Assembly (NCBI RefSeq): GCF_018977255.1 | Contig: NW_024704742.1 | Location: 17,362,001-17,426,000 of the forward strand | From: Callorhinchus milii | Lineage: Eukaryota | DNA: 64,000 nt | Reading direction: 5' to 3' | Shown here: positions 593-64,000 of the stretch, piece by piece | Position numbering within the stretch: the stretch's first letter is position 1 | Layout: each line of letters starts with the position of its first letter | The notes under the pieces: model-generated | What the model was told of the DNA's origin: nothing | The model's input: the letters and a program-made list of their open reading frames with translations, nothing else | Database searches by the model: none | Position numbers and translations under genes: made by a program

Positions 593-688
593 AATAATAA
601 TAATAATCCTTGCATTTGATATAGCGCTTTTCACGTCGGGAGGACGTCCCAAAGCGCTTCACAGAATATACTGTAAAGTGAATCGACT
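593..688 (-). mobile_element. 5'-truncated Deu-SINE (3' tail only)
   Basis: Reverse complement of the family tail GTGAAGCGCTTTGGGACGTCCTCCCGACGTGAAAAGCGCTATATCAAATGCAAGGA(TTA)n. Confidence 0.9.
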
Positions 689-1232: not shown

Positions 1233-1253
1233 ATGAACTCCACCCGCCAGCAG
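1233..1253 (+). CDS. TMEM192: TMEM192 coding exon 1 (MNSTRQQ)
   Basis: ATG at 1233 in the CpG island; CAG|GTCAGT donor; phase 0 joins in frame to exon 2. Short and not recognisable by homology, so less certain. Confidence 0.75.
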
Positions 1254-1302
1254 GTCAGTGACGTCACACAGCTGGTGTGCGTGACCTCACAAGCGAGGGA
1301 AC

Positions 1303-2176: not shown

Positions 2177-2211
2177 AATGTAATATCACAGAGGTCGGTG
2201 AGTGTGACTGT

Positions 2212-2526
2212 GGAGTCCTGTAGCTCAGTGAGCACTCGCTTTGCAAGCGAGAGACCTGAGTTCAATTCCAGGCAGAGGGCGAAACTTGGGCAAGTTTCCT
2301 TACTCCACACAGAGCCTAATAATAATCCCTCCAAAACCAAAAACAATAATAAATTGGTCATTTTCAATCTACGACTGTTTGTGGGACATTGCTGTGTGCA
2401 ATTGGCTGCCGCGTTCGCCCACAAATATACAGTCAATTCACTTTACAGTGTGTTCTGTGAAGCGCTTTGGGACGTCCTCCCGACGTGAAAAGCGCTATAT
2501 CAAATGCAAGGATTATTATTATTATT
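2212..2526 (+). mobile_element. Near full-length Deu-domain tRNA-SINE, short form
   Basis: tRNA-Ala-like head (small deletion in A-box region), Deu core GTGGGACATTGCTGTGTGCAATTGGCTGCCGCGTT, L2-like tail, (TTA)n. Confidence 0.9.
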
Positions 2527-2802
2527 CATGGAGAGTGGATGAGCGTAACATCACCGGGGAGTGGGGGGAAGGGTGGTATTGTGACGGCGTGGAGGAGGTT
2601 AAACATGACACCGGGGAGGAGGGGAGGAGGGGTTGAATGAGTGTGATATGATGATAAGAGAGAAGAACACCTGAGTGTGAGATGTGCTCTCCTTTCTGGG
2701 TTATGGGTTCTGAATCCTTTGTAGTCACAGTTTGCAGTATTGGAAGTACCCAGGATAGTTACAATGCTCTCTTTCCCAATGAGACCCAAGATCAAGTATA
2801 AT

Positions 2803-3116
2803 AAAATAATATAATAACCTCTGCATTTGATATAGCTCTTTTCACATCTTCTCGACGTCTCAAAGCGCTTCACAGACTAGACTGTAAAGTGAATCGACTG
2901 TATATTTGTGGGCGAAACACGGCAGCCAATTGCGCACAGCAATGTCGCACAAACAGTCGTGAATTGAAAATGACCAATTTATTTTTTTGTTTTGGAGGGA
3001 TTATTATCAGGCGTGTGGAGTAAGGAAACTTGCCCAAGGTGTCGCTCTGCCTGGAATTGAACTCAGGTCTCTCGCTTGCAAAGCGAGTGCTCTAACCACT
3101 GAGGGACAGGACCTCC
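2803..3116 (-). mobile_element. Full-length Deu-SINE, inverted relative to 2212-2526
   Basis: Reverse complement of the same family from head to tail. Confidence 0.9.
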
Positions 3117-3429
3117 ACATCTGTCTGTTTGTTCAGGTGGATGTTTAAGGGTCATGTGGCACTATTACTCTTGGTGTTTTAGTCAACAAATCCTCAGATT
3201 AATTGATCAATCAATCCATAGCTGTTTATTGGGTTCCGGTGTTTTTCAACTAAAACAGTCACACTTTATTATTAGCCGTGAAGTGCTGTGACATGGTGAG
3301 GTGCTTCAAAATACAGTGTATACATTTTCATTCTGTGATATAAAAATATGACTTTCCTGTGACCAGAGCCCTGTAACCCTGGAAAATTATGTGTGTGTGT
3401 CTGTGTGTGTGTTGTGCAGAAAATACAAT

Positions 3430-4830
3430 CTTGGACAATTAAGGAAATTGGGATTAAATTAAAACAGAAAGAGGAGGTTTATGATAAATGTTGGGCCCAA
3501 AATACAGAAGATAATCAAATTGAATATAGAAAGTACAGAGGAGAACTGAAAAAAGGAAATAAGAGGGGCAATGAGATTATATGAAAAAAGATTAGCGTGT
3601 ATCATAAAAAGTAACCCTAAGGCATTTTATAAGCATATAAAGAATAAAAGGTTAGTCATATGTAGGGACCAATTAGGGATCAAAGAGGAAATCTTCTTGT
3701 GGAGGCAGAGGACATGGCTGACGTACTGAATGAGTACTTTGCATCTATCTTCACAAAAGAAGAGGATGCAGCCAATGCCGCAGTATCAGAGGAGAGGGTA
3801 GAGAAATTAGATAAGAATAAACCAAGAGTGGAGGTACTAAAAAGGTTGTTGGTGCTCAAGGTAGATAAATCACCTGGTCAGGACGTGATGCATCCTAGGT
3901 TACTGAGGGAAGTAAGGGTGGAAATAACGGAGGCTCTGGCCACAATCTTTCAATCCGGGTGGTGCCAGAGGACTGGAGGGTTGCAAATGTTACTCCCCTG
4001 GACAAAAAGTGGCAGAAGGAGAAACCTGGGAACTTCAGGCCAGTCAGCCTGATGTCAGCAGTGGGGAAACATCTGGAGACTATAGTCCAAGACAAAATAA
4101 ATATTCACTTAGAAAAATATGGGTTAATAAAGGACAACCAAAATGGATTTGTTAAAGGCAAATCATGTCTAACGGATGAAGTAACAGAGAGGATGGATGA
4201 AGCTAGTGCAGTTGATGTAGTTTATGTGGATTTTCAAAAGATAAAGTGACACATATATAATAATAATAATAATAATAATAATCCTTGCATTTGATATAGC
4301 GCTTTTCACGTCGGGAGGACGTCCCAAAGCGCTTCACAGAATATACTGTAAAGTGAATTGACTGTATATTTGTGGGCAAACGCGGCAGCCAATTGCGCAC
4401 AGCAATGTCCCACAAACAGTCGTAGATTGAAAATGACCAATTTATTATTGTTTTTGGTTTTAGACTTGTAAGCAAAATAGAAGCCCAAGGTATTAAAGGG
4501 ACAGTGGCAGCATGGATACAGACCTGGCTGGGAGACAGAAAGCAGAGAGTAGCAGTGAATAGTTGTTTTTCTGACAGGGGGGGGAGTGTGCAGTGGTATC
4601 CCCCAGGGATCAGTATTGGGACCACTGCTATTTTTGATCTGTATAAATTACCTGGACTTGGGTATAGGGAGTACAATATCCAAGTCCTGACCAGGTGATT
4701 TACCTACCTAGTTTGCTAAGCTAGGAAAAGTACCAAACAGTGAGGAGGATAGAAGCAGAATGCAAATGGACATAGGCAAACTGGTAAAATGGGCAGACAC
4801 ATGGCAGATGAAGTTTAATGTGGTGAAATG
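3430..4830 (+). mobile_element. Decayed CR1-clade LINE ORF2, interrupted by a SINE
   Basis: Peptides VLNEYFASIFTKE, VPEDWRVANVTPL, NFRPVSLMS, GFVKGKSCLT, VDVVYVDFQK, WLGDRKQRVAVN, spread over frameshifted ORFs. Confidence 0.9.
4258..4462 (-). mobile_element. 5'-truncated Deu-SINE nested in CR1
   Basis: (TAA)n, tail and Deu core between two contiguous parts of the CR1 RT. Confidence 0.9.
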
Positions 4831-4974
4831 CTACACTCTGAAAAGCAGGGTGTAAGTTTTTGCTATTTAATTTTGTGTTTGTGTAGTTGATGTTGAGGTG
4901 GCATCTTACTAGTGAGATAAAAAGAATTGAGGTCCCATCTGCCTGTTGAGTTCCCCGTTAAAGATGGTGCAATA

Positions 4975-5360
4975 TAGGAACATAAGAATTTGCTAGGCGA
5001 AATAAGACCAAGGTCCATCCAGTTCGCCTTCCACCATACTGGCAGTTGCATACACATGTCATGTCCCAAGCCTATATATTGTATCCTGAGATATTATTTC
5101 CTAAAGGAAATCTATCTAATTTGTTCTTGAAAGAATCAACACTTTCTGCTTCCATTGTTTCTCTAGGGAGTCTGTTCCATATGTTTACTATTCACTCACT
5201 GAAGTAGTGTTTGCAGATTTCTTTTGAATTTACCCCCTTCAATCACAGGCCTTGTCCTCTGGTTCTACTGTTCAGTACAAGATAAAACAGCTCATCATGG
5301 TCTACATTATCAAGTTCCTTTAGAATATTAAAGACCGTAATAATATTGCCCATCAACCTA
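4975..5360 (-). mobile_element. CR1-type LINE 3' end
   Basis: Starts with the ATAGGAACATAAGAA tail repeat, followed by typical CR1 3' sequence. Confidence 0.6.
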
Positions 5361-5650
5361 CTAGGCAAAAGGAGACCATTTTATTGGAAAAGAGAAGTCT
5401 GAAAAGGGCTCTAATTGCAAACCAATTGTGCATATTGCCTTAGACCCATTGCAGTATCAACTTGCAATATTATGTGCGTAGAATATTACAGAGTAGAAAA
5501 GCAAGGTATAAGTTTTTGCCGTTTAATGTTGTATATGTGTAGTTGATGTTCATTTCATATACTGTGAAGTGATTTGAGACGTCTCAAAGACGCGATAAGA
5601 TGCTATATCAAACGCAAAGATTATCATTATTATTATTCATACATGGAGCG

Positions 5651-6010
5651 TGGAGTGCTGTAGTTCAGTAGTTAGAGCACTTGCTTCGCAAGTGAGAGAC
5701 TTGGGTTCAATTCCCAGCAGGGCAAGTTTCCTTACTCCACATGCCTCTGTTTACCTAGCATTAAGTAGGAACCCGGTTGCTAGTCAGTTGGTGGATCACT
5801 TTTCCGGGAGTAATAATTCCTTCAAAAAAATAATAATAATTGGTCACTTCAATTCACGACTGTTCGTGGGACACTGTTGTGGGCAATTGGCTGCCACGTT
5901 TCGTTGACAAAATATACAGTCAATTCACTTTAAAGTATATTCTGTGAAGCACTTTGAGACGTCTTGAAGACATGATAAAGCTCTATATCAAATGCAAGGA
6001 TTATTATTAT
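5651..6010 (+). mobile_element. Full-length Deu-SINE, long form, abutting the TMEM192 exon 2 acceptor
   Basis: Head, extra segment CTGTTTACCTAGCATTAAGTAGGAACCCGG, Deu core and tail. Confidence 0.88.
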
Positions 6011-6028
6011 ATAACTTATCTTCTGCAG

Positions 6029-6178
6029 AACTCGTCCTTTGATGTCACCCAAAGTTTAGAAGAGGAGCCACTAATAGATCACCCACTTCTCCATGCCGAT
6101 GTTCTGGTTGGTGATCTGAGGCCCTATTTCCAAAGTTTGTCAACAGTATGGTGGAGTGTTCTCTTAACAATTCTGCAC
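6029..6178 (+). CDS. TMEM192: TMEM192 coding exon 2
   Basis: TTCTGCAG| ... |GTGAGT, 150 nt. NSSFDVTQSLEEEPLIDHPLLHADVLVGDLRPYFQSLSTVWWSVLLTILH resembles human DITQSIEDDPLLDAQLL...RPRFHPLPTV. Confidence 0.95.
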
Positions 6179-7753
6179 GTGAGTGTTTGCTTTCCTTCAA
6201 TGCAACTTTTCCCTTAAGAGATTCTTTGGGTTGTAAAATGTTGAATTTAAGTATAGCAGTGTACTCTGCGACTATTTAGCAATTTTAAAAATGAGCAAAT
6301 ATGTTCGCAGACTTTTAATGATGTCCTCATTAATATTTTCTGCTAACTAGCTGATGACTATTCTCTGTGGGTGGAGGTGAGGAGAGGAGATAAGCAGGGG
6401 CTGAGCTAGCTCCAAGGTGACAAAATTGGCAACAAAATATTGGAATCAAGTCAACCTTCTGTGGCTGTCTTGATAGTCCAATTTCACCTGAGTCAAGTGG
6501 GTTTGCAACCAAGATAACAGACCAGACCTTGTTCTCTTCCAGTCTGCCTTCGAAGCCTGCATTGACTCATATTTTCAATAACGATTTTGTCCACCTCTTC
6601 CCACCTCCAGCTCGGGCTACAAGTCAGCTGTGAGCAGTGCTTTGAGATGTTCTGCCCTATTCTATATAAATTATTGTTCATGCTGTTGGGTGGATGTGAC
6701 ACTGTTTCTATTTATTCACCAACTTACAGAAATTACAAGTTTAAAAATGCCCTTGAAAGCTGTATCTCTCTTTCCACCCCTCCCCCACACCACCAACATC
6801 TTGAGAATGGTCCTTTTTCAGAATTGAACAAGAGATCCAATTTTCTTTTCATTCACAACGTTAATATCTTATTAATCAATTAGGGTTACTAAAAAATATC
6901 TAGCTTTAAGCTTCTAAAAATTATTTTGTTTTTAGTATTTTGTCTGTATCTGGAGAATGAGTGTGAAACCTGGGCTTCCCGCTGTCTGATTTAAAGATTT
7001 GCTTATTGTGGCAGTCAGCTGTTGATTAGCCGGATGCAACAACAACAACTTAGATTGATATAGCGCCCTTCACGTGGGCTAGCATGCCGGAGGATACCAT
7101 CTTTTGAGTTGGTTTTAGTTTAAAAAGTCACTACCTTGCTAACTGGCTGGTAAATTGCAACTGCTGAAGTCCAATAGTGCATTCCAGCTTCACAAAAGTC
7201 GCCGTTAAGAAATGTGTTGGGGGTAAATGGAGTTTGCCTCCAGTCCCCTCAACTACATTCAAAGTGATGTATGTCAAATTTGACACCAAGTTGTCACCAG
7301 TGATTTCTAGGTATTTATTGTAAGCTGCAAAAGCTGTTATGGAATGTAAATATTACATAAGTAAGGTATTTCTTATTTACCAACTCCTGTTGTATGATAG
7401 GGCAGTGCAGTCAGGCATCAGGTATCCAAAGGCACTTTGAAGATTTTGGGTGCTTGGTATGAGAAGCAAAATACATTTATACATGAACTTCCCGTTTTTA
7501 ACAGGAATTGTAAGTGATGTGAAGCTGAAACATGAAGTGGTGTCATTTGAAAGGCCATTGTTTTTCTTTATTAGTGAGGTCTCTCACATTGGTGAAAATC
7601 ACTTGGATTGTGGGTGAGGCTTTGTTTTGTCATGTGTGATATCAAATGCAAGGATTATAATTATTATTATTATTCCTTGAACTATTGTTAGTTTACTATT
7701 TTTGGGACTGTATTGGGCATTCTTGAGTAATTTTGTTTGTTTTGTTTTTCTAG

Positions 7754-8003
7754 GTGGTGTTTGTTGCTTTGTCATTTACTCTAGCCTTTGTATGTAATCC
7801 ATCCACTGCCGCTTGTGAAAAAGTCATTCTGTTAGAAGTTCCAAAGATAATTATTATGGCAAAGACTTGCCTATGGGCTCTCCTTGCTCTCTTTGGGTGG
7901 TATGTTCATGCTCAGCACTCCAAGGTGAGGAATAGAGGATATCTTGCACTGTATCGCTCCACTCGGCATCTGAAGCATCTGCCCATCTTTATCCATTCTA
8001 CAG
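7754..8003 (+). CDS. TMEM192: TMEM192 coding exon 3
   Basis: TTTTCTAG| ... G|GTAAG, 250 nt. [20 protein letters not shown] matches human [20 protein letters not shown]. Confidence 0.96.
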
Positions 8004-11000
8004 GTAAGAAGTAAACTTATTCATTGAGGACAGAAGTATCTTTGTCTACCACAGCCTGTAGGGTTCACCTACAATTCTTGGGGTGTAGATGTTTTAGGTG
8101 CAATATTTTGTACAGTTCTGCAGTAATCTGGTTGTGATTTTGTGGCGTACTTCTGCTTTTCTTAGAGAGGAAATGCGGAACATGAGGTGAACTAGATTTT
8201 GCAGCTTGATTGCTAGGTGTAAACGTGTAATTTTTTAAAAAAAATTAAAAATGAAACATTCTGTAAAGAGCATGGGATCCTGTAGCAGTGAATGAAACCT
8301 CCATAAACCAGTTTGGAATCCGATTGTAAAGTAATGTTAAATAGCAGCTCCCAAGACCAGAGGAAACCTTTAGCAGCAATGTGGCAATTCCTGATTAAAG
8401 ACTGGTTTCCTGCAGCGTATTGTAGTCATTGGTAAAGCTTCAAACTGTTTATTTACCCACTTCAAAAAGGAAGTAACAATGAAAGCCAAACTAACCTCAA
8501 ATGTATGCAATGTTTAAGAACCTATTACTGATGGAGTTTTTTTCAAGAGGAAACTGAGCACGGAAACAAAAAGTGGCTGTTTTGCTGGTTGAGGTCCCAG
8601 ACTTAGAGAAATTCCTATCTGTTAAACAAAACCTGTGTCCTACAAAGGTGACCAGCATCACATCATTTCCTGGATTAAGCACGATAACCTTGGAGCCAAT
8701 TCAGGTCTATGAGACCCCACTTACTTTCCCTCTTCCCCCTCCCCTTCCCCGAAGGAGGATAGTCACTAGTTAGTCATTCGACATTCAATATCCACTAACA
8801 CTCAATCCAAAATAGAAATCTTGTAACAATTTAAAAACATGCTGCATTATACGATTTTTAAAGCTCTTCTGGACATTAATTTTTGGGAACTATTTATTCT
8901 GAGGGATGTTTCTTCTGTTGAATGGATTACCTCCTTTTGAGCAGCATCCATAATAACAATAATCTTTGCATTTGTTATAGCGCCTTATCATGCCGTTGAA
9001 ACGTCTCAAAGCACTTCACAGAATATAGAGAAGTTTTCATCTCATCAGTCCGACAGGGGACAGAAACACAAGGGTTCTTAAATAAATTACTGTTTGTGTT
9101 TTTTTAAAAAATCTGTAATTCAAAGCTTGGCATGATTGGGAGATAGCATCTCTAAAGAGCCAGATCATGACTTCAGAAGCAAGGGGATGAATCTGACTCC
9201 TCGATAAACCAAGTAAATAATAATGATCTTTGCATTTGATATAGTGTCTTTCACGTACGCAGGACGACTCAAAACGCTTCATAAGGATTTACTGTGAAAT
9301 GAAGTGACTGTATTTTGTAGTCCCATGCTGCAGCCAATTTGCACGGAACAATGTTCCACAAAATCCATGAAGTGAAATGATAACTTAACTCTAGCATCCT
9401 ATTAATTACTGCAAATAAACTTCCAGGAAGAACCAACCCTCCCTAAACCTACGCGTACTTGAGACCAAAGGCCTCCCGAAGTACATTTCCACCCCATGCT
9501 GTGCTCATCTCCATATACCCCACAGCAAGCATGGGACCTGGATTTGGGTCACAAGGTAACCAGGAATAGAGAAACAAAAGAATAGAGAAATGTCTGGAGT
9601 CAGACCCTTGAAACTCACATGGACAGTTAAATGCAGTAAGGTCAATTCCAGCTCTTTCACCAAACATACTGCACTCTGCACAGTTTTTCAGGTTGCACCC
9701 ATCTCTGACTGATGCAGGATAGGTTATGGATAGAAAACAAGGTTTGAAAATATTCTTGCACACCACCTAATCCTGCATAGAAATCTCGTTTTTCTGCTCA
9801 ACGGTCCAAAGCATCTTGATGGCTACAACTACCTTTGTGATTCATTCCTTTCAGACTTGTTCTATTAGAATAGTGTCCTATTCCTCCCACACACATGGGT
9901 AATACGCATAAATGTTTCATTACAAAGCACTTATATGACATTGCCTCCATCTAGTGGCAATCTGGAATTGAACAATCTTCAGAAGTACAGAAAATGTACC
10001 TCTTTTGTATACAAGTGACATCAGACTGGTAACCTAGTTGCCTGGGTAAACCAGATAGTACTGTTACACGTGGGATTTATTTAAGACATTTTTTTATAAT
10101 CCCTCAGCATTTAAACTAAATAGCTTCAGGGTTTAAATCCCTTTGCAAATGGTGAAAGATTGAGTTGTAGCTTATGAATAGTAGATATAGGGAAACCAGC
10201 AAGGAGTGCATTAGAAAAGTCAAAACAGGAAGTAATGAAGGCTTAAATAAGTGTTTTCCAGCATTTGCTGTGCAATATAGGCGGGCAATGTGGCACAGGC
10301 AGAGGAATACCGTAATAATACATGGGTCATAGCACATGGATACCTGTAAAATACCTAGAGACTGCAATAACTATTTGGTCACTGCTCTATTCCTTTCAAG
10401 TGACCTGAACTAGTGTGGAATTCTGTGGTCAGTCTTTTAGTCTGGATTTTTAGCTCTTATGTTGTGCATGTTTGGTTGTGCTGAGGATGTACTGCTGTCT
10501 GGGCTTCAGCGGCTGCACATTGATCCCAAACAGAATGTCAATAATACGCATCAATAAGAACTTCCAAACGCTAAACATTCCACATGGATCCGATTTACTC
10601 TATTTATGCAGCATTTATGTAGAATTTAACAATTTGGGGAATTGTTACATTTACTTTAATTTTAAGTTGTTTTTCTGTAAATCTTGAAAGAATTTGTAGA
10701 AAACAGACTTGAGAGTTAAATCTGTATTTGGAATTTGCCAAACTCTGGGTGCCCTGAAATTCTACATAAATAGAGGCGCACTAAAGAATTTATATTTTAT
10801 ACAGCAACCTTCATGCAGGATAATGTCATGGAGCACTTTACAACTATGGGGTTGGATGCTGAGACAGGAGGTCGGAGTGGGGGGGAGAGGGTACCATAGG
10901 CATGTTCAAAATATGGTAGGATTTGAGGTGGAAAGACAGTGGTAGAGGAAGGGAGTTCCAGAGCTCTCCAGACCCAGGTGAGTTTCTCCCCACTAGATTT

Positions 11001-11495
11001 TAATATCTTTGGATGAGATCTGTACAGTCTCACAATATTAACTGGATAGTGGGGTCTTATAAATGGCAATTCTTACAAGATTCCTTAAAACAGGAAGTAT
11101 ATTACACTGGCTGCTAGAACTCTGCTCTCCCATAAGAGGGCCACTTTCAAACTAGATGCTATCGGGAGTTGAGGTGGGTTCCTACTGCTCAATAACGAAT
11201 CCTTTTGGAAAAGGCAACATAATAATAATAATCCTTGCATTTGATATAGCATCTTATTACATCTTTGAGACGTCTCAAAGCGCTTCACAGAATATGCTGT
11301 AAAGTGAATTGACTGTATATGTTATGGATGAAACGCACAGATGCAGCTCTTTTGTGCCGTTTGGAAATATTTTGTTTGCAAATTTGCCAAATAGGATTTT
11401 CAAAAGCTGCTGTAGGCTGATAATGATTCAATGTGAGAAGTGTCCGTCTCATGCCAAAGGGTTACCAATTGTTAATCATTGTGCTTGCTTCCTAG

Positions 11496-11618
11496 GTAAT
11501 ACAGCTCTTCTGCTTGTCCAAGCTGCAGTTGACAATAAAAGTCTGAATTTAAACATCACTCTTGGGGTCCTGGCGGTTGAACTCTTCTTTTCTTCGGCAT
11601 GCCTCATCATTTACACAG
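11496..11618 (+). CDS. TMEM192: TMEM192 coding exon 4
   Basis: TTCCTAG| ... AG|GTGAG, 123 nt, phase 1-1. GNTALLLV...LAVELFFSSACLIIYT matches human GNTVLLL...LALELICSLICLLIYT. Confidence 0.95.
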
Positions 11619-12399
11619 GTGAGGCACAGGAAGGGTTCAGTTCTGACTGGTTCTCACAACAGGGTGATGCTGCTGTCTGTCACATTATTTTGCATTATGG
11701 ATGCATCCTGAAAAATCGCTCCAGTTCATTTTGTGTTTTTTTCTATTTTTAAACAAAATTGGAGATGTCTGCATTTGCTCCCGTGTACTGAATTTATACT
11801 GCATCCTGATTTGAAAACGATCGTGTAGTGTGGGTTGGTATACCACCCTGTTTACATTGTAAGAAATATTCATTTTGTTCTAATGTAGTACAATTTATAT
11901 TTATATAGCACCTGACATCGATAGATTTTTAAAAACTAAAGGGATTAAGGGATATGGGGAGAGGGTGGGTAAATGGAATTAGCTTAGAAGATCAGCCATG
12001 ATCTTATTGAATGGCGGAGCAGGCTCGAGGAGCCAAATGGCCTACTCCTCCTATTTCTTATGTTCTTTCACATCGGGAGGATATCTCAAAGTGAAAGAGT
12101 GGAGGGAGGGGGTTAATTGATGCACTTAACTCACGACTGGACCAAATACGTACAACACTGTTCACAGAATCATGGTTAAAAGTTAGTGATTTGGGGATTT
12201 ATTTTAGCTTTTTCTATTCTCACCATTGGATTAAAACAATAGTTTGTGTCGGTTGCTTTTAACAATTGATTTAGAAAAAACTGCCCAAATGTGAAGTGAT
12301 AAATGACCATATCATACTTTACCAAATATAGGTTACACTGATATTGGGGAAGTTAATGAGTTCTGGATGGTTGTGTGCTTGCCTTTTTGTCTGTTTGCA

Positions 12400-12472
12400 G
12401 CGCCTTGGGACGTCCTCCTGACGTGAAAGGCGCTTTATAAATGGAATCTTGTTGTTGTTGTTGTTGTTGTTG
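12400..12472 (+). mobile_element. Isolated L2 3' tail with (TTG)n
   Basis: GCGCCTTGGGACGTCCTCCTGACGTGAAAGGCGCTTTATAAATGGAATC(TTG)n. Similar tails at ~7035-7080, 23135-23190, 23572-23610 and 49985-50035. Confidence 0.75.
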
Positions 12473-15162
12473 CCTGGCCTAGATGGGGGAGTTTTGAATG
12501 ATCTTCCTGAAACACAATGACTGATCCTACCAGAAATCTTTGAACAATTCAGCTGAACAACCAACCCACCACCAACTATATTACTGAGTCATGCAGATCA
12601 ATAAGGTCGCAGCTAGAGTAGGAGTGATATGGCTGGTCTCGGTGTCCCTGGACTAGGGAGGTGGGAAAAATCAGGTTGGGTTGCTGTTCTGATAGCTGTT
12701 CAGTGTTGCTTGCTGGAATGTGTGAATGTTGGGTGAGTTCAGGATCAGTCACTTGTAATGTTCGCTGTTTGCTGTAGCTCCAACCTCCCAGCTTGGGAGG
12801 CTTTCACCTTTAATTTGTTTATGACCCAAATTCATTGCATCTTTTGTCTACCAGTGCGGCATAATTTGTTACCTTAATAATTTCTGAATATCATTACAGA
12901 AAGTACTTCCTTTTTTTCTCAGGGAGAGACTGTTCAACTTACAATGACGAGGACCACATTCTGTAATGGGGAACTATATTTTAATTGAGGGAGGGAAGAA
13001 AGATTTTTGCACTGCCTTTTATGAAACTTTCACAACTCTTTTAAAACTTGCATTTTTAAAAAAATGCAAAATGCCACACACACACTGTAGTAATGTCCAT
13101 GAGAAACTTGCAGCTAATGACATTGGAGATTATCTGTTAACTGAATTGTTTCAGAAACAAAAGACCTTTGGGCTGGTTTGAGCATTGACAGGTCTAATTA
13201 ATTGAAGACTGTGTTGATACTAGTGTTAAGGATTGGACCTGTCACCAAATGTCTCTGAAATTAATCACTTCAAAGTAGCTGATTTAAAAAAAACAGGGTG
13301 CAAGAAACATACAGTAATGGTTCACTAATTGGCCATGTTTCACTCGATGTGCCGTCAATTCTGTAAACCCTTTGACAACAGTCTAATACCACTTGTAAAC
13401 CAGAAAGGACTTTTCCAAACTTAATACCATGTTTTTACTAGTATATTGGCGTGCGTGTGAAAGTATGTTGTTTTTGTAGCCTTCAACTCCATTTTTAAAT
13501 GCGGTTTCTGCCTTGATTGGCTACAATACTGTTTCAATAATGCAGAATTTACATTTTCTGAAATCCACACTGTGCCATTCTTTTTGAATCTTATTTGGTG
13601 CAGCAGTACTCAAATATTCCTCACTTTATTTTGTACTGTAATGGGGGCCAAAACAAAAAGGTAATGACACTTGGAGACTGAAACCAATGAGGAATAAACA
13701 GCTGGTTTATAGGAGCAAGAGCACTACCTGGCTGAGGCTCTTTAGAATATACATCTGAGGACTGATGTATTTAAGTGTGTGTGTCTCTGAGATATCTATG
13801 GTTTTAAGAGATTCCATACAGACTCGGCAAGCCACAAATTAGTGATCATGGTGGTCTCTTTCTTGAAACTTGCCCTTTGATATTTGAGGTTCACCACAAC
13901 CCTTTTTACAACGCCCCTTATTTCATGCCATAATTGTTCTTTTTTTGAAGCTGGTGGTCTATGGCTAGATGAAGAACAGGAGCACTGCTTTCCACAGAGG
14001 AGTGAAAGTCTCGCTCAGAATTAAAATCCTGGTGGGAAAACAAGCCCACCTGCGGTGCATTAGTCCAGCCCGGACGCTAGTCAATAAAATGTCTCCGGCA
14101 GTGGTAGCACTGTGAAATGCTTTTGGACTTATAGTGAGCCTTTCACTTTCTCATTCAGTCCCTGTTAACCTGCATCAGGCTCTTTGAATATGTGATAATA
14201 CTGTTTGTTCCCCTGTAGTTAGGTTAGTATTATTATAAATTGGACAGTTAATTCTTGACAGTGTGAATCTACATGAAGGAGGTCAGTTTTGAAATGCTGC
14301 TCCAGTGCTTACTTTATTTTCTTCTCTCTCTTTCCCCCCCCTCCCACCCACCACCCAACTGTAGGTTAGTGGGTAAATATGCTGTTTGTTGTGCCACATA
14401 TTCATACAGATAAATCTGCCAGCTCTGGTGACCATCTGCCCAGAGTTAATTGATCTCGGGTAGGGAGGTAGGGTGGCAGCAGATATGCTACAAATGTGTC
14501 CCAGGGCTCAGATTCCTACAAGTCCTACTAGAAAGTGCAATCATTTGATGTAGTATGAAGAGACAATTGACTCCTTTTGTGCCCTCTTTTGATCTTTTAA
14601 CCTGTAGGCACAGACTGTCCCACGTAAAGAATGATCCCTGGCGGGAGGTACTGGAAGGCTGTCCGCACTAGTGGAACTATATCCTGGCAGGTTCAATGAT
14701 GACAGAAAGGGAATAAAATGGAAACAATGACAGAGTCCTGCCTATGTAGCTCCTTCAATGGATTGTTCAATTCGTAGTCTGGTCAGATTTTAATCCCAAA
14801 TATTTTCGCTGTATTTTACTTCCATGATCAAAGTTTCCTCGCAATCTTGTCCGGACACCTCTATGGTAGCACATTGCTTCCAAGTTACTTCCTCTTTACT
14901 CCCTCCTCTTCCCCCCCCCCCAATAAAGTTAATGTCCCATGACCATTGATGTGCTGGTATTTAGATTCTCATCTGGTGGCAAGACATCTAGCTCTGACTG
15001 CGCTAATATAACTACAAAATGGACTGAGCTGGCTCATAAAAGGAAGCACAGTGTGTTTCTGGAACAGCCTCAGTTGAATTCCACAAACAAAAACAGAAAC
15101 AGTGCTGCAGACCAGTACATCATTGAGATTCTGGGTCTGACTTTTTACGTTTTATTTGACAG

Positions 15163-15271
15163 ATAAGATCGTAAAATTTAATCGCACTAAGCCATATCCG
15201 GATATCCAGGAGGAAGAGCGACGTCATGGATACCCTAATGTCACTAACATCGTGTCTGAGACTGGATTCAG
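15163..15271 (+). CDS. TMEM192: TMEM192 coding exon 5
   Basis: TTTGACAG| ... AG|GTGAAT, 109 nt, phase 1-2. [18 protein letters not shown]...SETGFR matches human KIRRFNKAKPEPDILEEE...SETGFR. Confidence 0.96.
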
Positions 15272-15845
15272 GTGAATGCTTCTTTCAGTAAATAATTTAT
15301 AATGAAATAAAAGATCATATAGCGCTCAATCTGCCTTCTAAATCTAGGTTGGAGTGACCTGATCTTAAAAGCAATAAAGTGACTGCCTGCCTCCCAACCA
15401 GATGCTGCTTGGTGTTGTGTTGTAGCCTTAATGGCTGCAGCTCGCCTGCCCTTCTGTCTGAATACTGACTGCTCTTGGTTGGATCATTGTGAGCAAACAA
15501 GCGAGGATTAGATGGCTTGCTGGTTGATGCCTGGTGTGATATTACTCCTACAGTTGAGAGCTTTCCAAAAGGTTTTCTTGCCCTCTATCATGACAAAGAT
15601 TATGGAGTCTTTCATCCACAACTCCATAATTCGGGCTACTAATAATTTGCCTACAAAATAGTCACTACACTTCACAGTTTAGTGTAAAGCGTTTTGAGAT
15701 GTCTCGATATAAGGTGTTATATTATTTTTTAAAATTATTTATTGATTATACTCCAATGCAGTACTGGGAGAACATTGTTTTAAGTTACCATCTATTCAGA
15801 AAGAAGGGATTTTTCTCCCAGGATTCTGGCCAACAATTGGGTATG

Positions 15846-16222
15846 TGGAGTCCTGTAGCTTTTTGGTTAGAGGACTTGGCTCGCAAGTGAGAGGATTTGG
15901 GTTCAATTCCCGGGCAGGGTGAAATGTAAGGCAAATTTCCTTACTCCACATGCCTCTGTTTACCTAGCAGTAAGTAGGAACCAGTTATTAGTCGATTTGC
16001 GGATCACTTTTCTGGGGACAAAAATAATTTTAAAAATTGGTGGTCACTCAGTCCACGACTGTTTGTGGGACATTGCTGCGTGCAATTGGCTGCCATGATT
16101 CGTCCACAAAATATATAGTCAATTCAGTATATTTACAATATATTTGGTAAAGCGCTTTGAGATGTGTCGAAGACATGATAAGGCGCTATATCAAATGCAA
16201 GAATTATTATTAATTATTATAA
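15846..16222 (+). mobile_element. Full-length Deu-SINE, long form
   Basis: GGAGTCCTGTAGCT head, extra segment, Deu core, (TTA)n tail. Confidence 0.88.
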
Positions 16223-17199
16223 TCACCTCATAGATATTAGCGTGACCTTGTTGTTGCAAATAGTTGCTTCCTTTTGTTATCAGCAGTGCCCTGGAGTACC
16301 CTAGAGTCTGGGTTCCTAAGCCTGGCTCCCAAGACTGGCACAATGGGTTGTCTCAATTCTAACATTCTGTTGTCAAGCTCCAAGGAGAGCCCACCTCCCT
16401 CCCCATACCCCAGGAGGATAGTCATTAGTTGATCATTTGAAATCCATCAAGCACAGGTTTGAGGCCACGCTAGGTGGATTGAATACCAGGTATCAGGAAC
16501 TCCCTGCAAGCTGGAACAGCACAGCTCGACATGAGATATGTGAGAGCATTATTACCACCTCCTGACCACAGGTGGGACTTGCATTCCTACCTGTTGACCA
16601 AAGATTCCACAAATCAGAAGTGTAGAGGCTGGAAGTGTAGAGGTTGAACAGCAGTTGCTCACTTCTCTGCATACAAATTAAGGAGGATACTAATCCCTGG
16701 ATATGCGCGTGTGTGTTTACAATCCCAGTCTCCAGGTAACGGCTTCCAACAGCTGGCATCCCAAGCTGGAGTTTTGTCATCAGCAATTGAACAACCGACT
16801 GCCTTCTGCTGGTGGGGTGGGTGAGAGGAGTAGATTTTCAGGACAGCTTGTGACGCGCCAGGCACCTTGATGTTCTCATTCTAAATCCAAGCCGTGTACC
16901 AGGCTTACTTAACAACAACTGCTCGAATCTGTTACTGGCTGAGCTACTGAGAGGAACATGCGGAGAGAAATTCTATCTAGGTCTAGATTTACTCAGTTTA
17001 TGTAGCATTTCAATGTTGAATTTAGAAAATTCTTAAATAAGGCCTTATTTTTTAAGTTGGTTTTCTGTAACTTTTTTAAAGAAATGACCCAGGTGGAATT
17101 TTCTCCCTTTACGATTTAATGTGGAGTTGGAATATGATGCATGGAACAGCACACAGTTGTGTCCAATGTTCTTCAAAGCATTTGATTTTATCTTTACAG

Positions 17200-17323
17200 G
17201 GATGGATCAAGCATGGAAAACCTTGTGGAAAAGCAAGCCGACCTCATTGATTACTTAACAATGCACAACGTGCAGCTGAGTAAAAGACTGCTGAGCTTAA
17301 CCACACAACAGATAAGAGAGTAA
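17200..17323 (+). CDS. TMEM192: TMEM192 coding exon 6 (terminal)
   Basis: TCTTTACAG| acceptor. [40 protein letters not shown] matches human [29 protein letters not shown]. The six exons total 777 nt (258 aa plus stop). Confidence 0.96.
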
Positions 17324-26247: not shown

Positions 26248-26336
26248 TTAAGGAAAGGGAACTCTCGAATGGAAAGGCAGGCATCGTCTGTGCCAACAAT
26301 TGCGTCGTTGCATTTTTTTCCGTCTCCAACTATTAC
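26248..26336 (-). CDS. APELA: APELA coding exon 2 (mature peptide)
   Basis: TTTTTTCAG| acceptor; encodes (G)NSWRRKKMQRRNCWHRRCLPFHSRVPFP*, ending in the conserved Elabela motif HSRVPFP with both cysteines. A donor (G|GTATGT) 6 nt after the stop implies a non-coding 3' exon. Confidence 0.97.
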
Positions 26337-27047
26337 CTGAAAAAAATTGGGACATTTGGGGAGGTTGCAAAATTAATCTGAACATTTCTAGAGATGGGAC
26401 TCAGGAATGCAGCCGGCACCCAGCACATTGTTAAAGCTGTTCCCTGAATATTGTCAGTCCTTTTTGTGTACGCTTGAAGGCTTGACTTGTGCTATTCAGT
26501 CAATTAACCTCTCGTTACATAGCACAGATTCTTTTTAAGACAGAATTGTTCTTTCCTTTTGAGCACTCTGAATACGCTCAAAGTTGTAACAAAACTCTAG
26601 AAAACCGAGTCATTTTTACTCTAAAAATTAACTGAATAAAATGAATACACAGTTCTACTACATCTCACTTACTTCTGGTGACAGGCACTCACTATTTTTG
26701 TTGGTGTGAGAGTAATATCTTTCTATCCATCTCACAGTGAAAAGCAACAAGTGTATTTTTCACTATAGTGCTTTCCTCAAAACATTTTGATTAGTCTGAT
26801 CTTATGAAATACTAATCCTCAAAAAATGTAGGACTTACACCATATAAAGCATTATCAAAAGATATTTTGACGTGATAAGGCAATATATTAAAATCATTGC
26901 TATTTTTAGTTATTTTGTAAGCACCGTTAAACTCTTCAACCAAATATGTTAAGCAGTACTATTAACCAATGTTTTTTGCACAAGTTGCTCCAAATAAGTA
27001 TCACATAATAGATTTATCTACTAAAAGTTCATGAACCATTCTCTTAC

Positions 27048-49782: not shown

Positions 49783-49956
<174 letters not shown>

Positions 49957-52269: not shown

Positions 52270-54310
52270 TGTGAGTTCCTCCTTGACTTGGTGATCACTC
52301 GGGGCCTCATTTTCTTGGTCCTCACCATCATCGACAAAGCGATCTCGGACCATCACTTCATCTCCCTTAACTCCTCAATCCCTCTCCCCATCGCCACCCA
52401 ACTCACCTCCATCTCATACCGCCCCTGGAAAAAAATCTCTTCCCCCTCCCACCTCCCTCTCAGCTGCCTTGGAGATCTTGGAACTCCTTCCCCTCTGGGT
52501 ATCCTCCCGCAATGACCTATCCTCCTCGGTCACTCTTCTCCACAGCTCCCTCTCCTCCACTCTTGATTCACCTGCTCCCCTCTCTTCCCGAACATTCTCC
52601 TACTCAAGCAAATCACCTTGGTACACCAGCCACTTCTGCTCCCTTAAAGCCCAAGTGTGTTCCACTGAGTGCACCTGGCTTAAATCACCCCTTACTGTTC
52701 ATCGCAGATTTGGCTGGACCATGTCAAATCCTACCGCTCTGTCCTCGCCTCCACGAAATCATCGTTCTACTCCAAGACAATCTTGGAGGCTAAGGACAAC
52801 CCCAGGCTCCTCTTCTCCATCATGAGCCAGCTCCTCCGCCCACCCTCTCATGCCTCACCCATTCTCACCTCAAATGCAAACTGCGAGGCGATGCTGAACT
52901 GCTGAACCTCTCCCTGTCCTCTGGTACTGTTACCACCCCTTTAAAAACCGCTGTCCTATCCTTAAATCACTCCTATCCTTAAAAAAACGTCCCTGGACTC
53001 TTCTCTACTCCCTAACTACTGCCCCATCTCCAACCTCCTCTTCCTCTCCAAGGTCCTGGAACGAGTTGTTGCTTCTCAGCTTTGCTCCTTCCTCTCCTGC
53101 CACTCCCTTCACGAACCCCTCCAATCGGGCTTCCGTGCTGCCCACAGCACAGAAACAGCTCTGGTCAAAGTGACAAATGACATTCTGTCCATTTGCGACC
53201 AGGACTCCCTCTGCCTCCTTGTTCTCCTTAACCTCTCTTCCTTTGACACCGTTGACCACTCTATCCTCTTCCACCGATTCATCTCCTCTCACCTCAGCCT
53301 TCATTGCTCTGTCACTGACTGGTTCAGATCATATCTCTCTCACTGCCTCCACTTCAGCTCAACAAACGGTATCGCCTCTAGCCCCCGGACTGTCTTGTGC
53401 GGCGTTCCTCAGGGCTCTGTCCTTGTGTCCCTCCTCTTCCATATCTATATGCTTCCTCTTGGTGATAACATCCGCAGACAAGAGGTCAACTTCCATATGC
53501 GGATGACACACGACTGTACCTTTCTCCCTCTACCCTTGACTCAGGGCCACTGCTGTCCTGACAGAATATCTGTTAGACATCAAATCCTGGATGAGGGCTA
53601 ATTTTCTTCATTTGAACGTCAACAAGATCGAGGCTCTCCAGATTGGCTCCCATCAGAACCTCCTCACCTCAGGCGCTGACAGCATCACCATCCATGGTTG
53701 TACACTCCACCTTACCAAGCCAGTCCGGAACTTGGGGGGCTTGTTTGACCCTCAACTATCCTTTCTATCCCACATCCATGCCATGATCCCCTCTGCCTTA
53801 CCCCACCTCCGCCACATCGCCCGGATCTGCCACTGACTCACACCACAGGCTACCAAAACCCTCATACACGGATTCATTACATCAAGGCTTGACTATGCAA
53901 ACTCATTGCTTGTTGGCCTCCCCAACTACTCCCTGCATAGGTTGCAAATCATCCTGAACTCTGCAGCCCTTGTCCTGTCCCGCACCAGGCTCCGTGACCT
54001 TATCACCCCATCCTCACCTGACACCACTGGCTTCCCATCACATAGAGGATACAGTTCAAGACCCTGGTCCTCATCTTCAAAGCCCTCCAAGGTCTTGCTC
54101 CCCCCTACCTCTTCAATCTACGTAACGTCCTACCATCCTGCCCGCTCCCTCAACTCAGTGGGCTCTGGCCTGCTTTGCGTCCCCCATTGGATGGGCCTTC
54201 TGCCACTCTGCCGCACCCTCTGGAACTCCATCCCGCAGTCCCTCTGCCTCGCCTCTTCCCTTGCCTCTTCAAGACCCATCTCAAGACCCTCCTCTTTGTA
54301 CTTTTGATCT
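52270..54310 (+). mobile_element. Decayed L2 LINE ORF2
   Basis: LDLVITRG, ISDHHFIS, LLVLLNLSSFDTVDHSIL, CGVPQGSVL, LFDPQLSF; multiple frameshifts. Confidence 0.92.
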
Positions 54311-54327
54311 CCTTGCTTTCCCAACAG

Positions 54328-55206
54328 CCCTCTTGGTGACATCAACCACAGACAGGGGGTCAACTTCCACATGTATGCGGATGACACCCAACTCTACCTC
54401 TCTGCCTCCACCCTTGACTCCAGGACCTCTGCTGCGCTGACAGAATGTCTGTCAGACATCAAATCCTGGATGAGAACTAACTTTCTTCAGTTGAACATCA
54501 ACAAGACCGAGGCTCTCCTGATTGGCTCCCGTCAGCGCCTCCACAACTCAGGCGCTGATGGCATCACCATCCATGGTTACACACTCCACCTTACTAAGCC
54601 AGTCCACAACCTTGGGGTCTTGTTTGACCCTCAACTATCCTTTCTACCCCACATCTGCGCCCTGACCCGCCCTGCCTTCCTCCACCTCTGCAACGTCGCC
54701 CGGCTCCAACCCTGTCTCACACCGCAGGCCACCGAAACCCTCATACATGCTTTCATTACATCGAGGCTCGACTATGCAAACACACAGAGGATACAGTTCA
54801 AGATCCTGATCCTCACCTTCAAAGCCCTCCAGGGTCTTGCTCCCCCCTACCTCTCTGACCTCCTAAACCCTGCTCCCTCTGCTCAGCGGGCTCCGGCCTG
54901 CTTCTCGTCCCCCGCCTTGCTCACCCCACTATTGGCAGGCAGACCTTCCGCCATTCTGTACCCACCCTCTGGAACTCCATCCCATAGTCCCACCGTCTCA
55001 CCCCCTACTTCCCCCCCTGCCCTCCACCCTCCCCAAGCACTCTGACTATCTATCGCTTTGGTATGTCCTCGTGACGTGAAAGGCACTATACAAATGTAAT
55101 TTTGTTGTTGTTGTTGTAATGGAGTCAGGCTCCGCCACTGTTAAACAATCTGAGACGATACCCTGCGTGGAGGGCCCTATATAAGTGCAAGCTGTTGTTG
55201 TTGTTG
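54328..55206 (+). mobile_element. Second L2 fragment with internal deletion, followed by two tails
   Basis: MYADDTQLY, LQLNINKTEAL; SRLDYAN joined directly to QRIQFKIL; two (TTG)n tails at ~55060-55117 and ~55125-55206. Confidence 0.9.
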
Positions 55207-58444: not shown

Positions 58445-60520
58445 ATGGCCCCCACATCCTCAAATATCCTATCGCTCTGGCCTTCCACCCGTAGAGATCC
58501 TGGAGCAGCCGTCCAGCTGCTCCATGATCACCTCTTCTCCACCTTCAACTCTCTCGTCCCCCTGAAATCCAGGACCATCTCCAAACCCACCCGATCCCCC
58601 TGGTATAATAATCATCTCCACTCCCTAAAAACCCAAACCCGGCTGCTCGAGTGCAGATGGCAGAAAACTGGCCTGACAGTTCATCACCAACTGTGGCTCG
58701 AGCATCTCCACAGCTACCGTTGTTTTTTGACGCGCGTGAAAATGGCTTCTGCTCCAACATCATCTTGAAGGCAAAAAGCAATCCCAAAGTCCTTTTTTCC
58801 AGCACCCACTACCTCCTCTGTGCATCCCCTCAGGCCTCCTCAATCTTTACATCCAATGCCAAGTGCGAGGAGATCATGGACTTCTTTTCATCCAAAATAA
58901 CATCCGCCAGGTAGCCTTATCCACCTGCCTCTTGTCACCCACCACCACCCCTTCTCCATCCCCCTCACCCTCCCCATCATCAGCTCCTACCACGGCCCCC
59001 ATCCTACATTCCTTCCTCCCCATCTCTCCCTCCTCCCTCTCATCCACCATCACCTCAATGAAACCCACCACCTGCTGCCTCAAACCCCTCCCCACCAACT
59101 TGCTGGTCACCCAGCTCCAACCTCCTCTGCCCACTACTGGCGTTGTTGCCAAATAACTCTGCGCACACCTCTCCTCCCAGTCGCTCTTCGAACCCCTCCA
59201 GTCCAGTTTCCGCTCTGCGCACAGTACAGAGACTGCGCTTGTGAAAGTCTCAAATGACATCGTCTCTATATGTGACCGGGGTCCCCTCTGCCTCCTTGTC
59301 CTCCTGGACCTCTCCGCCGCGTTCGACACAGTCAATCACACCATCCTCCTCCAACGCCTTTCCTCCACTTCAGTGGGACCGCACTTGCCTGGTTCCAGTC
59401 CTACCTCACAAACCGCCAGCAGTACATCTGGATAAATGGCTTCTCCTCTCGCCATCACCCGGTTACTTGCGGGGTACCCCAAGGATCCATCCTTGGCCCC
59501 CTCCTCTTCCTAATCTATATGCTCCCTCTTGGGGATGTTATCCGCAGACATGGGGTACACTTCCATATGTATGCGGATGACACCCAACTCTATTTTTCTA
59601 CCTCACTACGCGACACCCAGTCCCCTGATGTTCTGTCAGCCTGCCTGTCAGACATTAGGGGCTGGATGAGCATGAATTTCCTTCAACTAAATGTTGACAA
59701 GACGGAAGCCATACTCTTTCGCTCTCGTCAACATCTAAAATCACATGGTTCTCACCTCCTCCACTTACCCGACCTCCCCTTAAAACTCTCCGAACCCGTA
59801 TGCAACCTAGGCATCAAGTTCGACCCCCAATTATCCTTCCTCCCCCACATCCGGTCCCTCACCAGCACCACTTTCATCCACCTCCGACTCATCTCCCATC
59901 TCCACCAATACCTCACTCCAAAAGCCGCTCAAACCCTGATCCATACCTTTGTCACCTCTCGGCTGGACTATGCTAATACCCTCCCCGCCGGTTTCCCCTC
60001 CACTACCATTCATAAAATCCAGCTCATCCAAAGCTCTGCCGCCCGCATTCTCACCCGCACCAAACTCCACTCCCCGATCACCCCAGTCCTTGCCAGACTG
60101 CACTGGCTGCTTGTCCCAGAGAGGATCGACTTCAAGATCCTCACTCTTGTCTTCAAATCCCTCCACTCCTCTGCACCCCCTTACCTGTCTGACCTCCACT
60201 CTCCTCAAAACAGTGCCCATTGCCTATGTTCCTCCATGTCTGGCCTCCTCCTTGTTCCCCCAAATCCTCCGCTCCACCATCAGCGGCCGTGCTGTCAGCC
60301 ACTACACCCCGAGGCTCTGGAACTCCCTTCCTCAATCCCTTCACCTCACCCCCTCTCTTCCTATTTTCAGGTCTCAGCTGAAGACCTTTCTTTTCGACCG
60401 CGCCTTTGGTCACCTTCCTCCCCCTCCCTCTGGCTCGGCCCCGGGATATGTTACTGTGAAGCGCTCTGAGACTCCGTCCAGCGTGGAGGGCGCTATATAA
60501 ATCCAAGTTGTTGTTGTTGT
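58445..60520 (+). mobile_element. L2 LINE, 5'-truncated, RT domain and 3' tail
   Basis: [49 protein letters not shown]; tail GAGGGCGCTATATAAATCCAA(GTT)n. Confidence 0.94.
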
Positions 60521-62002: not shown

Positions 62003-62610
62003 ACCCTCTCCCCACCCTCTCTCTGCCCCCCTCCCTCTCTACCCCCTCCCTCTGCCCCCTCCCTCTGCCCCCCCTCCCTCTGTCCCCCCTCCCTCTGCCC
62101 CCCTCCCTCTCTACACCCCTCCCTCTCTACCCCCCTCCCTCTGCCCCCCTCCCTCTGTTCCCCTCCCTCTGCCCCCCTCCCTCTCTGCCCCCCCTCCCTC
62201 TGCCCCCTCCCTCTCTGCCCCCTCCCTCTCTACCCCCCTCCCTCTGCCCCCCCTCCCTCTGCCCCCTCCCTCTCTACCCCCCTCTGCCCCCCTCCCTCTA
62301 ACCCCCCCTCCCTCTCTACACCCCTCCCTCTCTACCCCCCTCCCTCTGCCCCCCTCCCTCTGTTCCCCCTCCCTCTGCCCCCCTCCCTCTCTGCCCCCCC
62401 TCCCTCTGCCCCTCCCTCTCTGCCCCCTCCCTCTCTACCCCCTCCCTCTGCCCCCCCTCCCTCTGCCCCCTCCCTCTCTACCCCCCCTCTGCCCCCTTCC
62501 CTCTAACCCCCCCCTCCCTCTCTACCCCCCTCCCTCTCTACCCCCCCTCTAACCCCCCCCCTCTAACCCCCCCCTCCCTCTCTACCCCCTCTGCCCCCCC
62601 CTCCCTCTCC
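62003..62610 (+). repeat. Polypyrimidine minisatellite with CCCCCTCCCTCT(G/CTA) units
   Basis: About 600 bp of almost pure C/T, ending ~65 bp before the TADA2B ATG. Confidence 0.95.
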
Positions 62611-62675
62611 GCCGTGCAGTGCGCAGGCTCAGGCTGAGGGCCGGGGAGGGAGGGCCGCTCCCTCGCTCGGCAGCC

Positions 62676-63938
62676 ATGGCGGAGCTGGGCAAGAAGTACT
62701 GCGTGTACTGCCTGGCGGACGTGAGCGGTCTGCGGCTCCGCTGCACCGAGTGCCAGGACGTGGAGCTGTGCCCCGAGTGCTTCTCGGCGGGCGCCGAGAT
62801 CGGCGGGCACCGGCGCTGGCACGGCTACCAGCTGGTGGACGGCGGGCGGTTCGCCCTGTGGGGGCCGGAGGCGGAGGGCGGGTGGACGGGCCGCGACGAG
62901 CAGCTGCTGCTGGACGCCATCGAGCAGTTCGGCTTCGGCAACTGGGAGGACATGGCGGCCCATGTGGGCGCCCGCGGGCCGCAGGAGGTCATGGAGCACT
63001 ACGTGGCCATGTACATCCACGGCAACCTGGGCCGCGCCTGCATCCCCGAGCTCATCCCCAACCGGGTGACCGACCACACCTGCCCGGCCGGCGGCCCGCT
63101 CTCGCCCAGCCTCACCACCCCGCTCCCCCCGCTCGACATGGCGGCCGCCGAGCAGCAGCAGTTGGGCTACATGCCGCTCCGCGACGACTACGAGGTGGAG
63201 TATCTGCAGGACGCCGAGGCGCTGATCAGCGGCCTGGCCGTCAACTACGACGACGAGGATGTGGACATCGAGCTGAAGCGGGCCCACGTGGACATGTACG
63301 TGAGGAAGCTGCGGGAGAGGCAGCGGCGCAAGAACATGGCCCGGGACTACGGGCTGGTGCCGGCCTTCCTGGGCAAGGAGAGGAAGGAGAAGGCGCTGAA
63401 GAGGAAGGTGACCAAGGAGGAGAAGGAGCTGCGGGTCAAGCTGCGGCCGCTCTGCCAGTTCATGTCCTGCAAGGAGTTCGAGGACTGCTTCGACAACCTG
63501 CACAAGGAGCGGGCGCTGCGGGCCAAGATCCGGGAGCTGCAGCGCTACCGGCGCAACGGCATCGCCAAGACCGAGGAGTCGGCGGAGTACGAGGCGGCCA
63601 AGCACAAGCGAGAGAAGCGCAAGGAGATGAAGAACAGCGCCGGGGCCAAGCGGGGCAAGGACGACGGCGGCAAGGAAGCGGGAGCGGAGTTCAACTCCAT
63701 GGAGAACCTGCCCGGCTTTGACCTGCTGTCGGATCGGGAAAAAGTACTGTGCAATTCGCTCAACCTCAGCCCGACCCGTTACCTGACCGTCAAGACCATC
63801 ATCATCAAAGACTATCTGCAAAAAAGGCAGGGCATCCCTTCGAAGAGCCGTCTGCCCAGCTACCTCGACAAGGTTTTAAAGAAGAGGATACTGAATTTCT
63901 TAACAGAAAGTGGCTGGATATCCAGGGATGCCTCTTGA
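62676..63938 (+). CDS. TADA2B: Transcriptional adapter 2-beta (SAGA HAT module), single-exon CDS, 420 aa
   Basis: GCCATGG Kozak; MAELGKKYCVYCLAD start; ZZ zinc finger, SANT domain (WTGRDEQLLLDAIEQFGFGNWEDMAAHV), GYMPLRDDY motif, SWIRM-like C-terminus ending LTESGWISRDAS*. No disablements. Confidence 0.97.
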   Translation: MAELGKKYCVYCLADVSGLRLRCTECQDVELCPECFSAGAEIGGHRRWHGYQLVDGGRFALWGPEAEGGWTGRDEQLLLDAIEQFGFGNWEDMAAHVGARGPQEVMEHYVAMYIHGNLGRACIPELIPNRVTDHTCPAGGPLSPSLTTPLPPLDMAAAEQQQLGYMPLRDDYEVEYLQDAEALISGLAVNYDDEDVDIELKRAHVDMYVRKLRERQRRKNMARDYGLVPAFLGKERKEKALKRKVTKEEKELRVKLRPLCQFMSCKEFEDCFDNLHKERALRAKIRELQRYRRNGIAKTEESAEYEAAKHKREKRKEMKNSAGAKRGKDDGGKEAGAEFNSMENLPGFDLLSDREKVLCNSLNLSPTRYLTVKTIIIKDYLQKRQGIPSKSRLPSYLDKVLKKRILNFLTESGWISRDAS

Positions 63939-64000
63939 TGTTTAACTTCCCTGAAACAAACTGCTTATTTCTAGTCACGCCATCTCCCAAGAGCTTTTTT

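Follow-up and report, generated by a model that had tools for sequence, protein, structure and literature searches.

How did the elephant shark (Callorhinchus milii) come to have a TADA2B gene whose coding sequence is a single uninterrupted frame, when the coding sequence of human TADA2B is split by one intron near the residues GNW|EDM? TADA2B (ADA2b) is the SAGA-specific adaptor and contacts GCN5/PCAF through its ZZ-SANT region. The gene lies at the 3' end of a 64,000-nucleotide stretch of contig NW_024704742.1 (positions 17,362,001 to 17,426,000, forward strand), which we call the window, and a first-pass annotation had read it as a retrogene that moved to a new place and stayed functional. 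Our analysis suggests, with moderate confidence, that it is the native ortholog, that its intron was lost in place via cDNA and that a rearrangement break lies on its 5' side. The word intronless refers here to the coding sequence only, and the window stops 62 bases past the TGA.

The TADA2B frame and its protein

The TADA2B coding sequence runs from ATG to TGA in a single frame of 420 codons (62676-63938, +), free of stops and of N, as the whole window is free of N. Codons 86-95 read GFGNWEDMAA without a break, and GGC AAC TGG GAG GAC ATG runs continuously across positions 62945/62946 (+), i.e. the codon 90/91 boundary GNW|EDM, where our reading of the sequence and the comparison of protein fragments place the phase-0 intron site of bony vertebrates and where there is no intron here. 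The Pfam search found the ZZ_ADA2, SANT/Myb, TADA2A-like third and C-terminal Ada2b (SWIRM-like) domains in the expected order. Among the best 120 of 454 matches the closest homologs are the TADA2B proteins of sharks (89-90% identity) and of a whale (85%), and the best matches are named TADA2B. NCBI and UniRef already list this exact protein, on a contig of 139,202,109 bases; the protein itself is ordinary, known and annotated, and the variation lies in the structure of its gene.

The eight ZZ ligand positions, cysteines included, are the same as in a mammalian ortholog, and the SANT core residues W70, W90 and Y109 are kept. In human TADA2B, W70, W90 and Y110 are required for the binding of GCN5/PCAF and for SAGA assembly, according to the accessible part of PMC10996596. 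From this conservation the elephant shark protein would be expected to bind GCN5/PCAF within SAGA. In a tree of 35 proteins, which agrees with the species relationships, the window protein falls between elasmobranchs and bony vertebrates, and a branch with 100/100 support sets the 17 chondrichthyan rows apart from the rest. Its end branch is 0.068 long and is not flagged as a long branch. Signs of a processed pseudogene (stops, frameshifts, relaxed change) are absent, the frame being intact and the branch short. The frame, its domains and the shark identity bear out the first-pass annotation in its claim of an intact 420-codon TADA2B frame through GNW|EDM, and the intact frame, the kept ZZ and SANT residues and the short branch make the gene look as if it had stayed functional, as was also proposed.

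One SANT-loop residue (99/100; window 62970-62980) is missing in all 17 chondrichthyan rows relative to most bony vertebrates, and one teleost row has the same shortened loop length. Skate and ray TADA2B proteins carry low-complexity insertions at sites where teleosts also expand, e.g. the Rhinoraja protein reaches up to 564 aa and has a longer branch (0.24). The search of solved structures returned distant ADA2 relatives only, and the metagenome scan gave 190 pattern matches with none confirmed. The long frog and marsupial models were considered as fusions with neighbouring genes; this was rejected, and they are 5' extensions.

The intron at codon 90/91 in other animals

The presence of the intron was judged from the protein data of relatives, i.e. 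gene models and translated fragments. We compared 139 TADA2B rows, and in 135 of them GNW|EDM is uninterrupted. Inserts exactly at this place occur in a rat isoform (58 residues) and a camel model (18 residues); of the last two rows, a teleost model is wrongly joined there and a fragment begins just past the junction. When cluster representatives were searched with the part of the protein that ends at GNW, 954 matched; the best 150 were examined, 20 of them at E<=1e-30. After GNW, 16 of these 20 representatives continue with Val and then unrelated letters, two have other inserts and two have EDM. Val in this position requires a GTN codon and hence points to read-through into a phase-0 GT donor. 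Diagnostic residues and the closest named homolog assign the 16 read-through fragments to the mammal type (4), the sauropsid type (2) and the teleost type (10), and none to the shark type, and their occurrence in mammals, sauropsids and teleosts indicates that the phase-0 intron is common to bony vertebrates. The motif is present in 106 of the remaining 130 rows and is followed by Val in 8; seven of the eight continue as ADA2 protein, and one is a mammal-like fragment. No read-through at GNW|EDM was found in any of the 105 non-vertebrate rows. The intron was not seen outside bony vertebrates, in a data set where sharks are thinly sampled and hidden by clustering at 50%.

A coding intron of mammals, reptiles and bony fishes is thus missing from the elephant shark TADA2B. 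The first-pass annotation had placed an intron at about this point in human TADA2B, and for bony vertebrates an intron there is supported by the read-through fragments together with the rat and camel inserts.

Among the non-vertebrate fragments, the sequence breaks ~13 codons past GNW in three rows and at GNW without Val in one, which hints at other nearby intron positions in invertebrate ADA2b. A ray-type Logan protein, from a library of unrecorded type, is continuous across the junction. An unnamed, divergent TADA2B-like protein of 445 aa may come from a jawless fish, and three identical Mustelus TADA2B accessions hint at UTR variants.

Copy number

The 90% cluster of the window protein has three members, the other two being one protein each from two sharks, and no second elephant shark TADA2B was found among the best 120 of 454 matches. 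Three of 24 sequencing runs hold all 148 sampled words of the gene (to two decimals); they have 886-963 million letters against a genome of 0.937 Gb and are probably DNA. Full matches in runs of this size argue against an assembly artefact. Among the other runs, seven guessed to be RNA (two studies, which may be DNA) hold 41-98% of the words, three rows from one sample of another organism hold 28%, six runs hold 5% and four hold none.

In ruminants there is a further TADA2B-like frame of full length, which was called in one piece on assembled contigs of up to 16 kb. In the tree of 35 proteins it is nested among amniote TADA2B and changes faster. This copy is probably an intact retrocopy and makes a stronger candidate for a retrogene than the gene in the window does.

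Neighbouring genes and base composition

Two upstream genes were identified firmly. TMEM192 has six coding exons at 1233..17323 (+), one of which is 99% identical to the TMEM192 of Callorhinchus milii, and a stretch with the C-terminal exon of APELA (Toddler) lies at 26251..26400 (-), with a match to PF22050 (E 5e-14). The identity and the Pfam match confirm these two genes. A small membrane-protein exon in a stop-to-stop stretch at 49783..49956 (-), near 49.9 kb, had no match in the Pfam search; we take it to be SMIM31, and it stands head-to-head with TADA2B. Broken LINE reverse-transcriptase fragments with RVT_1 matches lie at 52966..55042 (+) and, upstream of TADA2B, at 59157..60466 (+). 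Of the 121 frames of at least 50 codons between the SMIM31-like exon and TADA2B, four encode LINE reverse transcriptase, and no CCDC96-like or other non-LINE family was found among them. The start of TMEM192 has a CpG island (window 1-1260), where a head-to-head gene on the minus strand may begin; the human gene in that arrangement is KLHL2.

The TADA2B coding sequence lies largely inside a CpG island whose 3' edge falls within the coding sequence. GC3 is 0.99 in codons 1-90, 0.98 in codons 91-330 and 0.71 overall beyond (range 0.6-0.8), and the observed/expected CpG ratios are 1.01, 0.89 and 0.71, respectively; a TMEM192 exon taken for comparison has 0.40 and 0.26 for the two measures. The leader at 62610..62675 (+) has 79% GC, 7 CpG and a good start context, and is probably a promoter edge or 5' UTR; its CpG island extends ~1 kb into the coding sequence. 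The leader is adjoined by a C/T-rich tandem array of ~600 bases with units of 15-44 bases (62004..62609), found by repeat analysis, which ends 66 bases 5' of the start codon. Another array, rich in G, is found just within the first intron of TMEM192 (about 1300-2170); from both arrays, G-quadruplexes or triplexes might arise close to promoters.

Behind the stop codon the window holds the start of the 3' UTR (63939..64000, +), where the longest A run is 3 and AATAAA and ATTAAA are absent. The first-pass annotation had pointed to a possible poly(A) remnant. None was found in these 62 bases, nor was a poly(A) signal or a target-site repeat, and they share no word of at least 8 letters with the upstream 1.3 kb; the true 3' end lies beyond the window, and the stretch is too short to weigh for or against retro-insertion.

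Gene order in cartilaginous fishes and other vertebrates

The neighbourhood was assessed indirectly, by comparing the database records of TADA2B and TMEM192 for contigs of equal size and for the distance between RefSeq numbers, a proxy for adjacency. Both genes are on the same contig in all 13 tabulated elasmobranchs (sharks and rays), and also in Mustelus and Narcine. The accession distance is 1-2 in 5/13, no more than 20 in 9/13 and no more than 60 in 10/13 elasmobranchs, while in Carcharodon, Stegostoma and Rhincodon (3/13) the numbers lie far from each other or belong to a scattered series. As a control for accession distance we used pairs of Hmx genes: seven of eight tandem pairs are within 221 numbers and one is 20,057 apart, and all four cross-cluster pairs are at least 2,397 apart. 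The Hmx accessions are those of the supplement of PMC10696661. Close numbers hence suggest neighbours, and distant numbers prove little. The catshark accessions run in the order TADA2B, TMEM192 and then Hmx1, the last 26 numbers on, all within 29 numbers. Gar (593) and frog (1,838), each with both genes on one contig, have distances between the two control classes, and in reedfish and hedgehog the two genes are on different contigs.

Since the linkage of TADA2B and TMEM192 is common to sharks and rays, the neighbourhood is probably older than the split of chimaeras and elasmobranchs, dated to ~420 Myr in the available text of PMC3964593. The human order, as far as the consulted part of PMC4804413 gives it, is PPP2R2C ... 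KIAA0232, TBC1D14, CCDC96, TADA2B, GRPEL1, SORCS2, AFAP1, ABLIM2 ... CPZ, HMX1. The 5' neighbours of the window gene differ from it, with an SMIM31-like gene in place of CCDC96; PMC6315173 contains no APELA synteny. The position that had been called non-syntenic is thus unlike the human one on the 5' side, but the neighbourhood appears to be common to sharks and rays. With that neighbourhood and no long branch, the claim of a relocated retrogene is not supported, and the case for relocation is weak.

Origin of the intron-free gene

In the reading that we favour, the elephant shark would have one ordinary TADA2B at its inherited locus. A rearrangement older than the chimaera/shark split would have parted it from the upstream neighbours of the human gene (CCDC96, TBC1D14 and KIAA0232) and brought it beside SMIM31-APELA-TMEM192. 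Recombination with a cDNA of the spliced mRNA would most likely have taken out the single coding intron, precisely and without moving the gene, and LINE enzymes would be an available source of reverse transcriptase. With such a loss in place the gene would keep its own CpG-island promoter, and we infer that it is expressed. The RNA-mediated origin proposed at first thus survives in part: loss of the intron through reverse transcriptase stays the likeliest event, whereas the relocation of a copy is not supported.

Several observations count against this reading. The intron lies near the 5' end, and cDNA-mediated intron loss is biased to 3' ends. The accession proxy fails or is uninformative in 3/13 species, and one tandem control pair is far apart. 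None of the 105 non-vertebrate rows has the read-through. Callorhinchus milii has undergone fewer intron changes than any bony vertebrate, as stated in the available text of PMC3964593, which makes it the slowest vertebrate in this respect.

This slowness and the fact that the intron was not seen outside bony vertebrates speak for another explanation, which we regard as a tentative possibility: the locus is native, its intron-free state is ancestral and the codon 90/91 intron was a gain in the ancestor of bony vertebrates. Vertebrate TADA2B would already have been without coding introns, perhaps as an ancient processed copy, and cartilaginous fishes would have kept that state. All 16 read-through fragments are indeed of bony-vertebrate type, the sole read-through in the 106 lower-ranked rows with the motif is the mammal-like fragment, and three invertebrate-like fragments break ~13 codons further on instead. 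GC3 of 0.98-0.99 and CpG ratios of 0.9-1.0 even across the junction are also as for a long-standing single exon. However, the missing shark-type fragment is weak evidence with sharks thinly sampled and hidden by the 50% clustering, the stem of bony vertebrates is short compared with 450 Myr of the chimaera lineage, and, teleosts apart, introns are gained less often than they are lost. Both gain and loss are rare in vertebrates, according to the consulted part of PMC12357937. The fuller form of this explanation, in which all vertebrate TADA2B descends from an ancient processed copy and the intron was gained on the bony-vertebrate stem, we consider unlikely. If the gain is true, a gene central to chromatin would offer a rare case of an intron birth that is dated, and the intron would cleanly mark the split between cartilaginous and bony vertebrates.

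A lesser variant shifts the retrogene of the first-pass annotation to an earlier time: in the common ancestor of the cartilaginous fishes, a processed copy would have inserted beside SMIM31, captured a promoter, replaced its parent and become fixed. The neighbourhood common to elasmobranchs and not evident in reedfish or hedgehog, and the 121 frames without a CCDC96-like or other host-gene family, would fit such an insertion. TADA2B mRNA does retropose, as the second full-length copy of ruminants indicates, and the accessible text of bioRxiv 10.64898/2026.06.26.734816 counts 14,081 retrocopies in cartilaginous fishes. The window protein, on the other side, has no increase in rate, and we find this origin improbable.

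Loss of the intron from the native locus by exact genomic deletion, through double-strand-break repair and with no RNA step, is very improbable in our judgement. A single intron provides no run of adjacent losses that would point to cDNA, but the junction is exact, with no codon added or lost at 90/91, and such precision is more usual when introns are lost through cDNA. The part of PMC12357937 available to us recognises intron loss through cDNA as well as by genomic deletion. That the gene is a recent processed copy whose spliced parent lies elsewhere in the genome, or an artefact of assembly, is hardly credible, given that no second elephant shark gene appeared among the best 120 of 454 matches, that the three probable DNA runs contain every sampled word (to two decimals) and that the neighbourhood is probably old.

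We found no report on the gene structure, intron state or synteny of TADA2B in fishes, in a search that left most subscription papers outside. The supplement of PMC3964593 gave no matches for TADA2B, GRPEL1, intron loss or retrogene; its Supplementary Notes with the intron analysis, which may list the event, were excluded from this count. The intron difference in TADA2B, a matter of modest importance, would belong to a small number of intron changes in the vertebrate genome that changes most slowly, and the order TADA2B-TMEM192-Hmx1 would be a local gene-order character of cartilaginous fishes. More generally, an intron-free gene at the edge of a rearrangement can mimic a retrogene when human is the sole comparison.

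Comparison with known systems

Compared with vertebrate TADA2B/ADA2b (Pfam PF25299, PF00249, PF22941 and PF24533), the window protein has the same length of 420 aa, domain order, ZZ ligands and SANT core, and is 85% identical to a mammalian ortholog. It differs in having one SANT-loop residue fewer, and its gene differs in lacking the codon 90/91 intron and in having the SMIM31-like upstream neighbour and not CCDC96.

The locus resembles in-place intron losses in vertebrates, as described in the available parts of PMC12357937 and PMC3964593, in that one intron is exactly absent from a conserved ortholog. Unlike the usual case, the whole coding sequence is left as one exon, and this in a lineage whose introns have changed less than those of any other vertebrates. 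The relocated intron-less retrogenes for hatching enzymes in teleosts (PMC6385490, accessible part) are similar to the window gene in being intron-free and intact, and the window gene is apparently the only copy. In contrast to orphan or replacement retrogenes, it has no sign of a move and no increase in rate, and it is not nested in another gene. The TADA2B-like copy of ruminants (Bos, Bubalus, Ovis, Capra and Budorcas) likewise has a full-length frame, apparently without the intron. That copy is an extra one, nested among amniotes and changing faster, as a true retrocopy should be, and the window gene is not.
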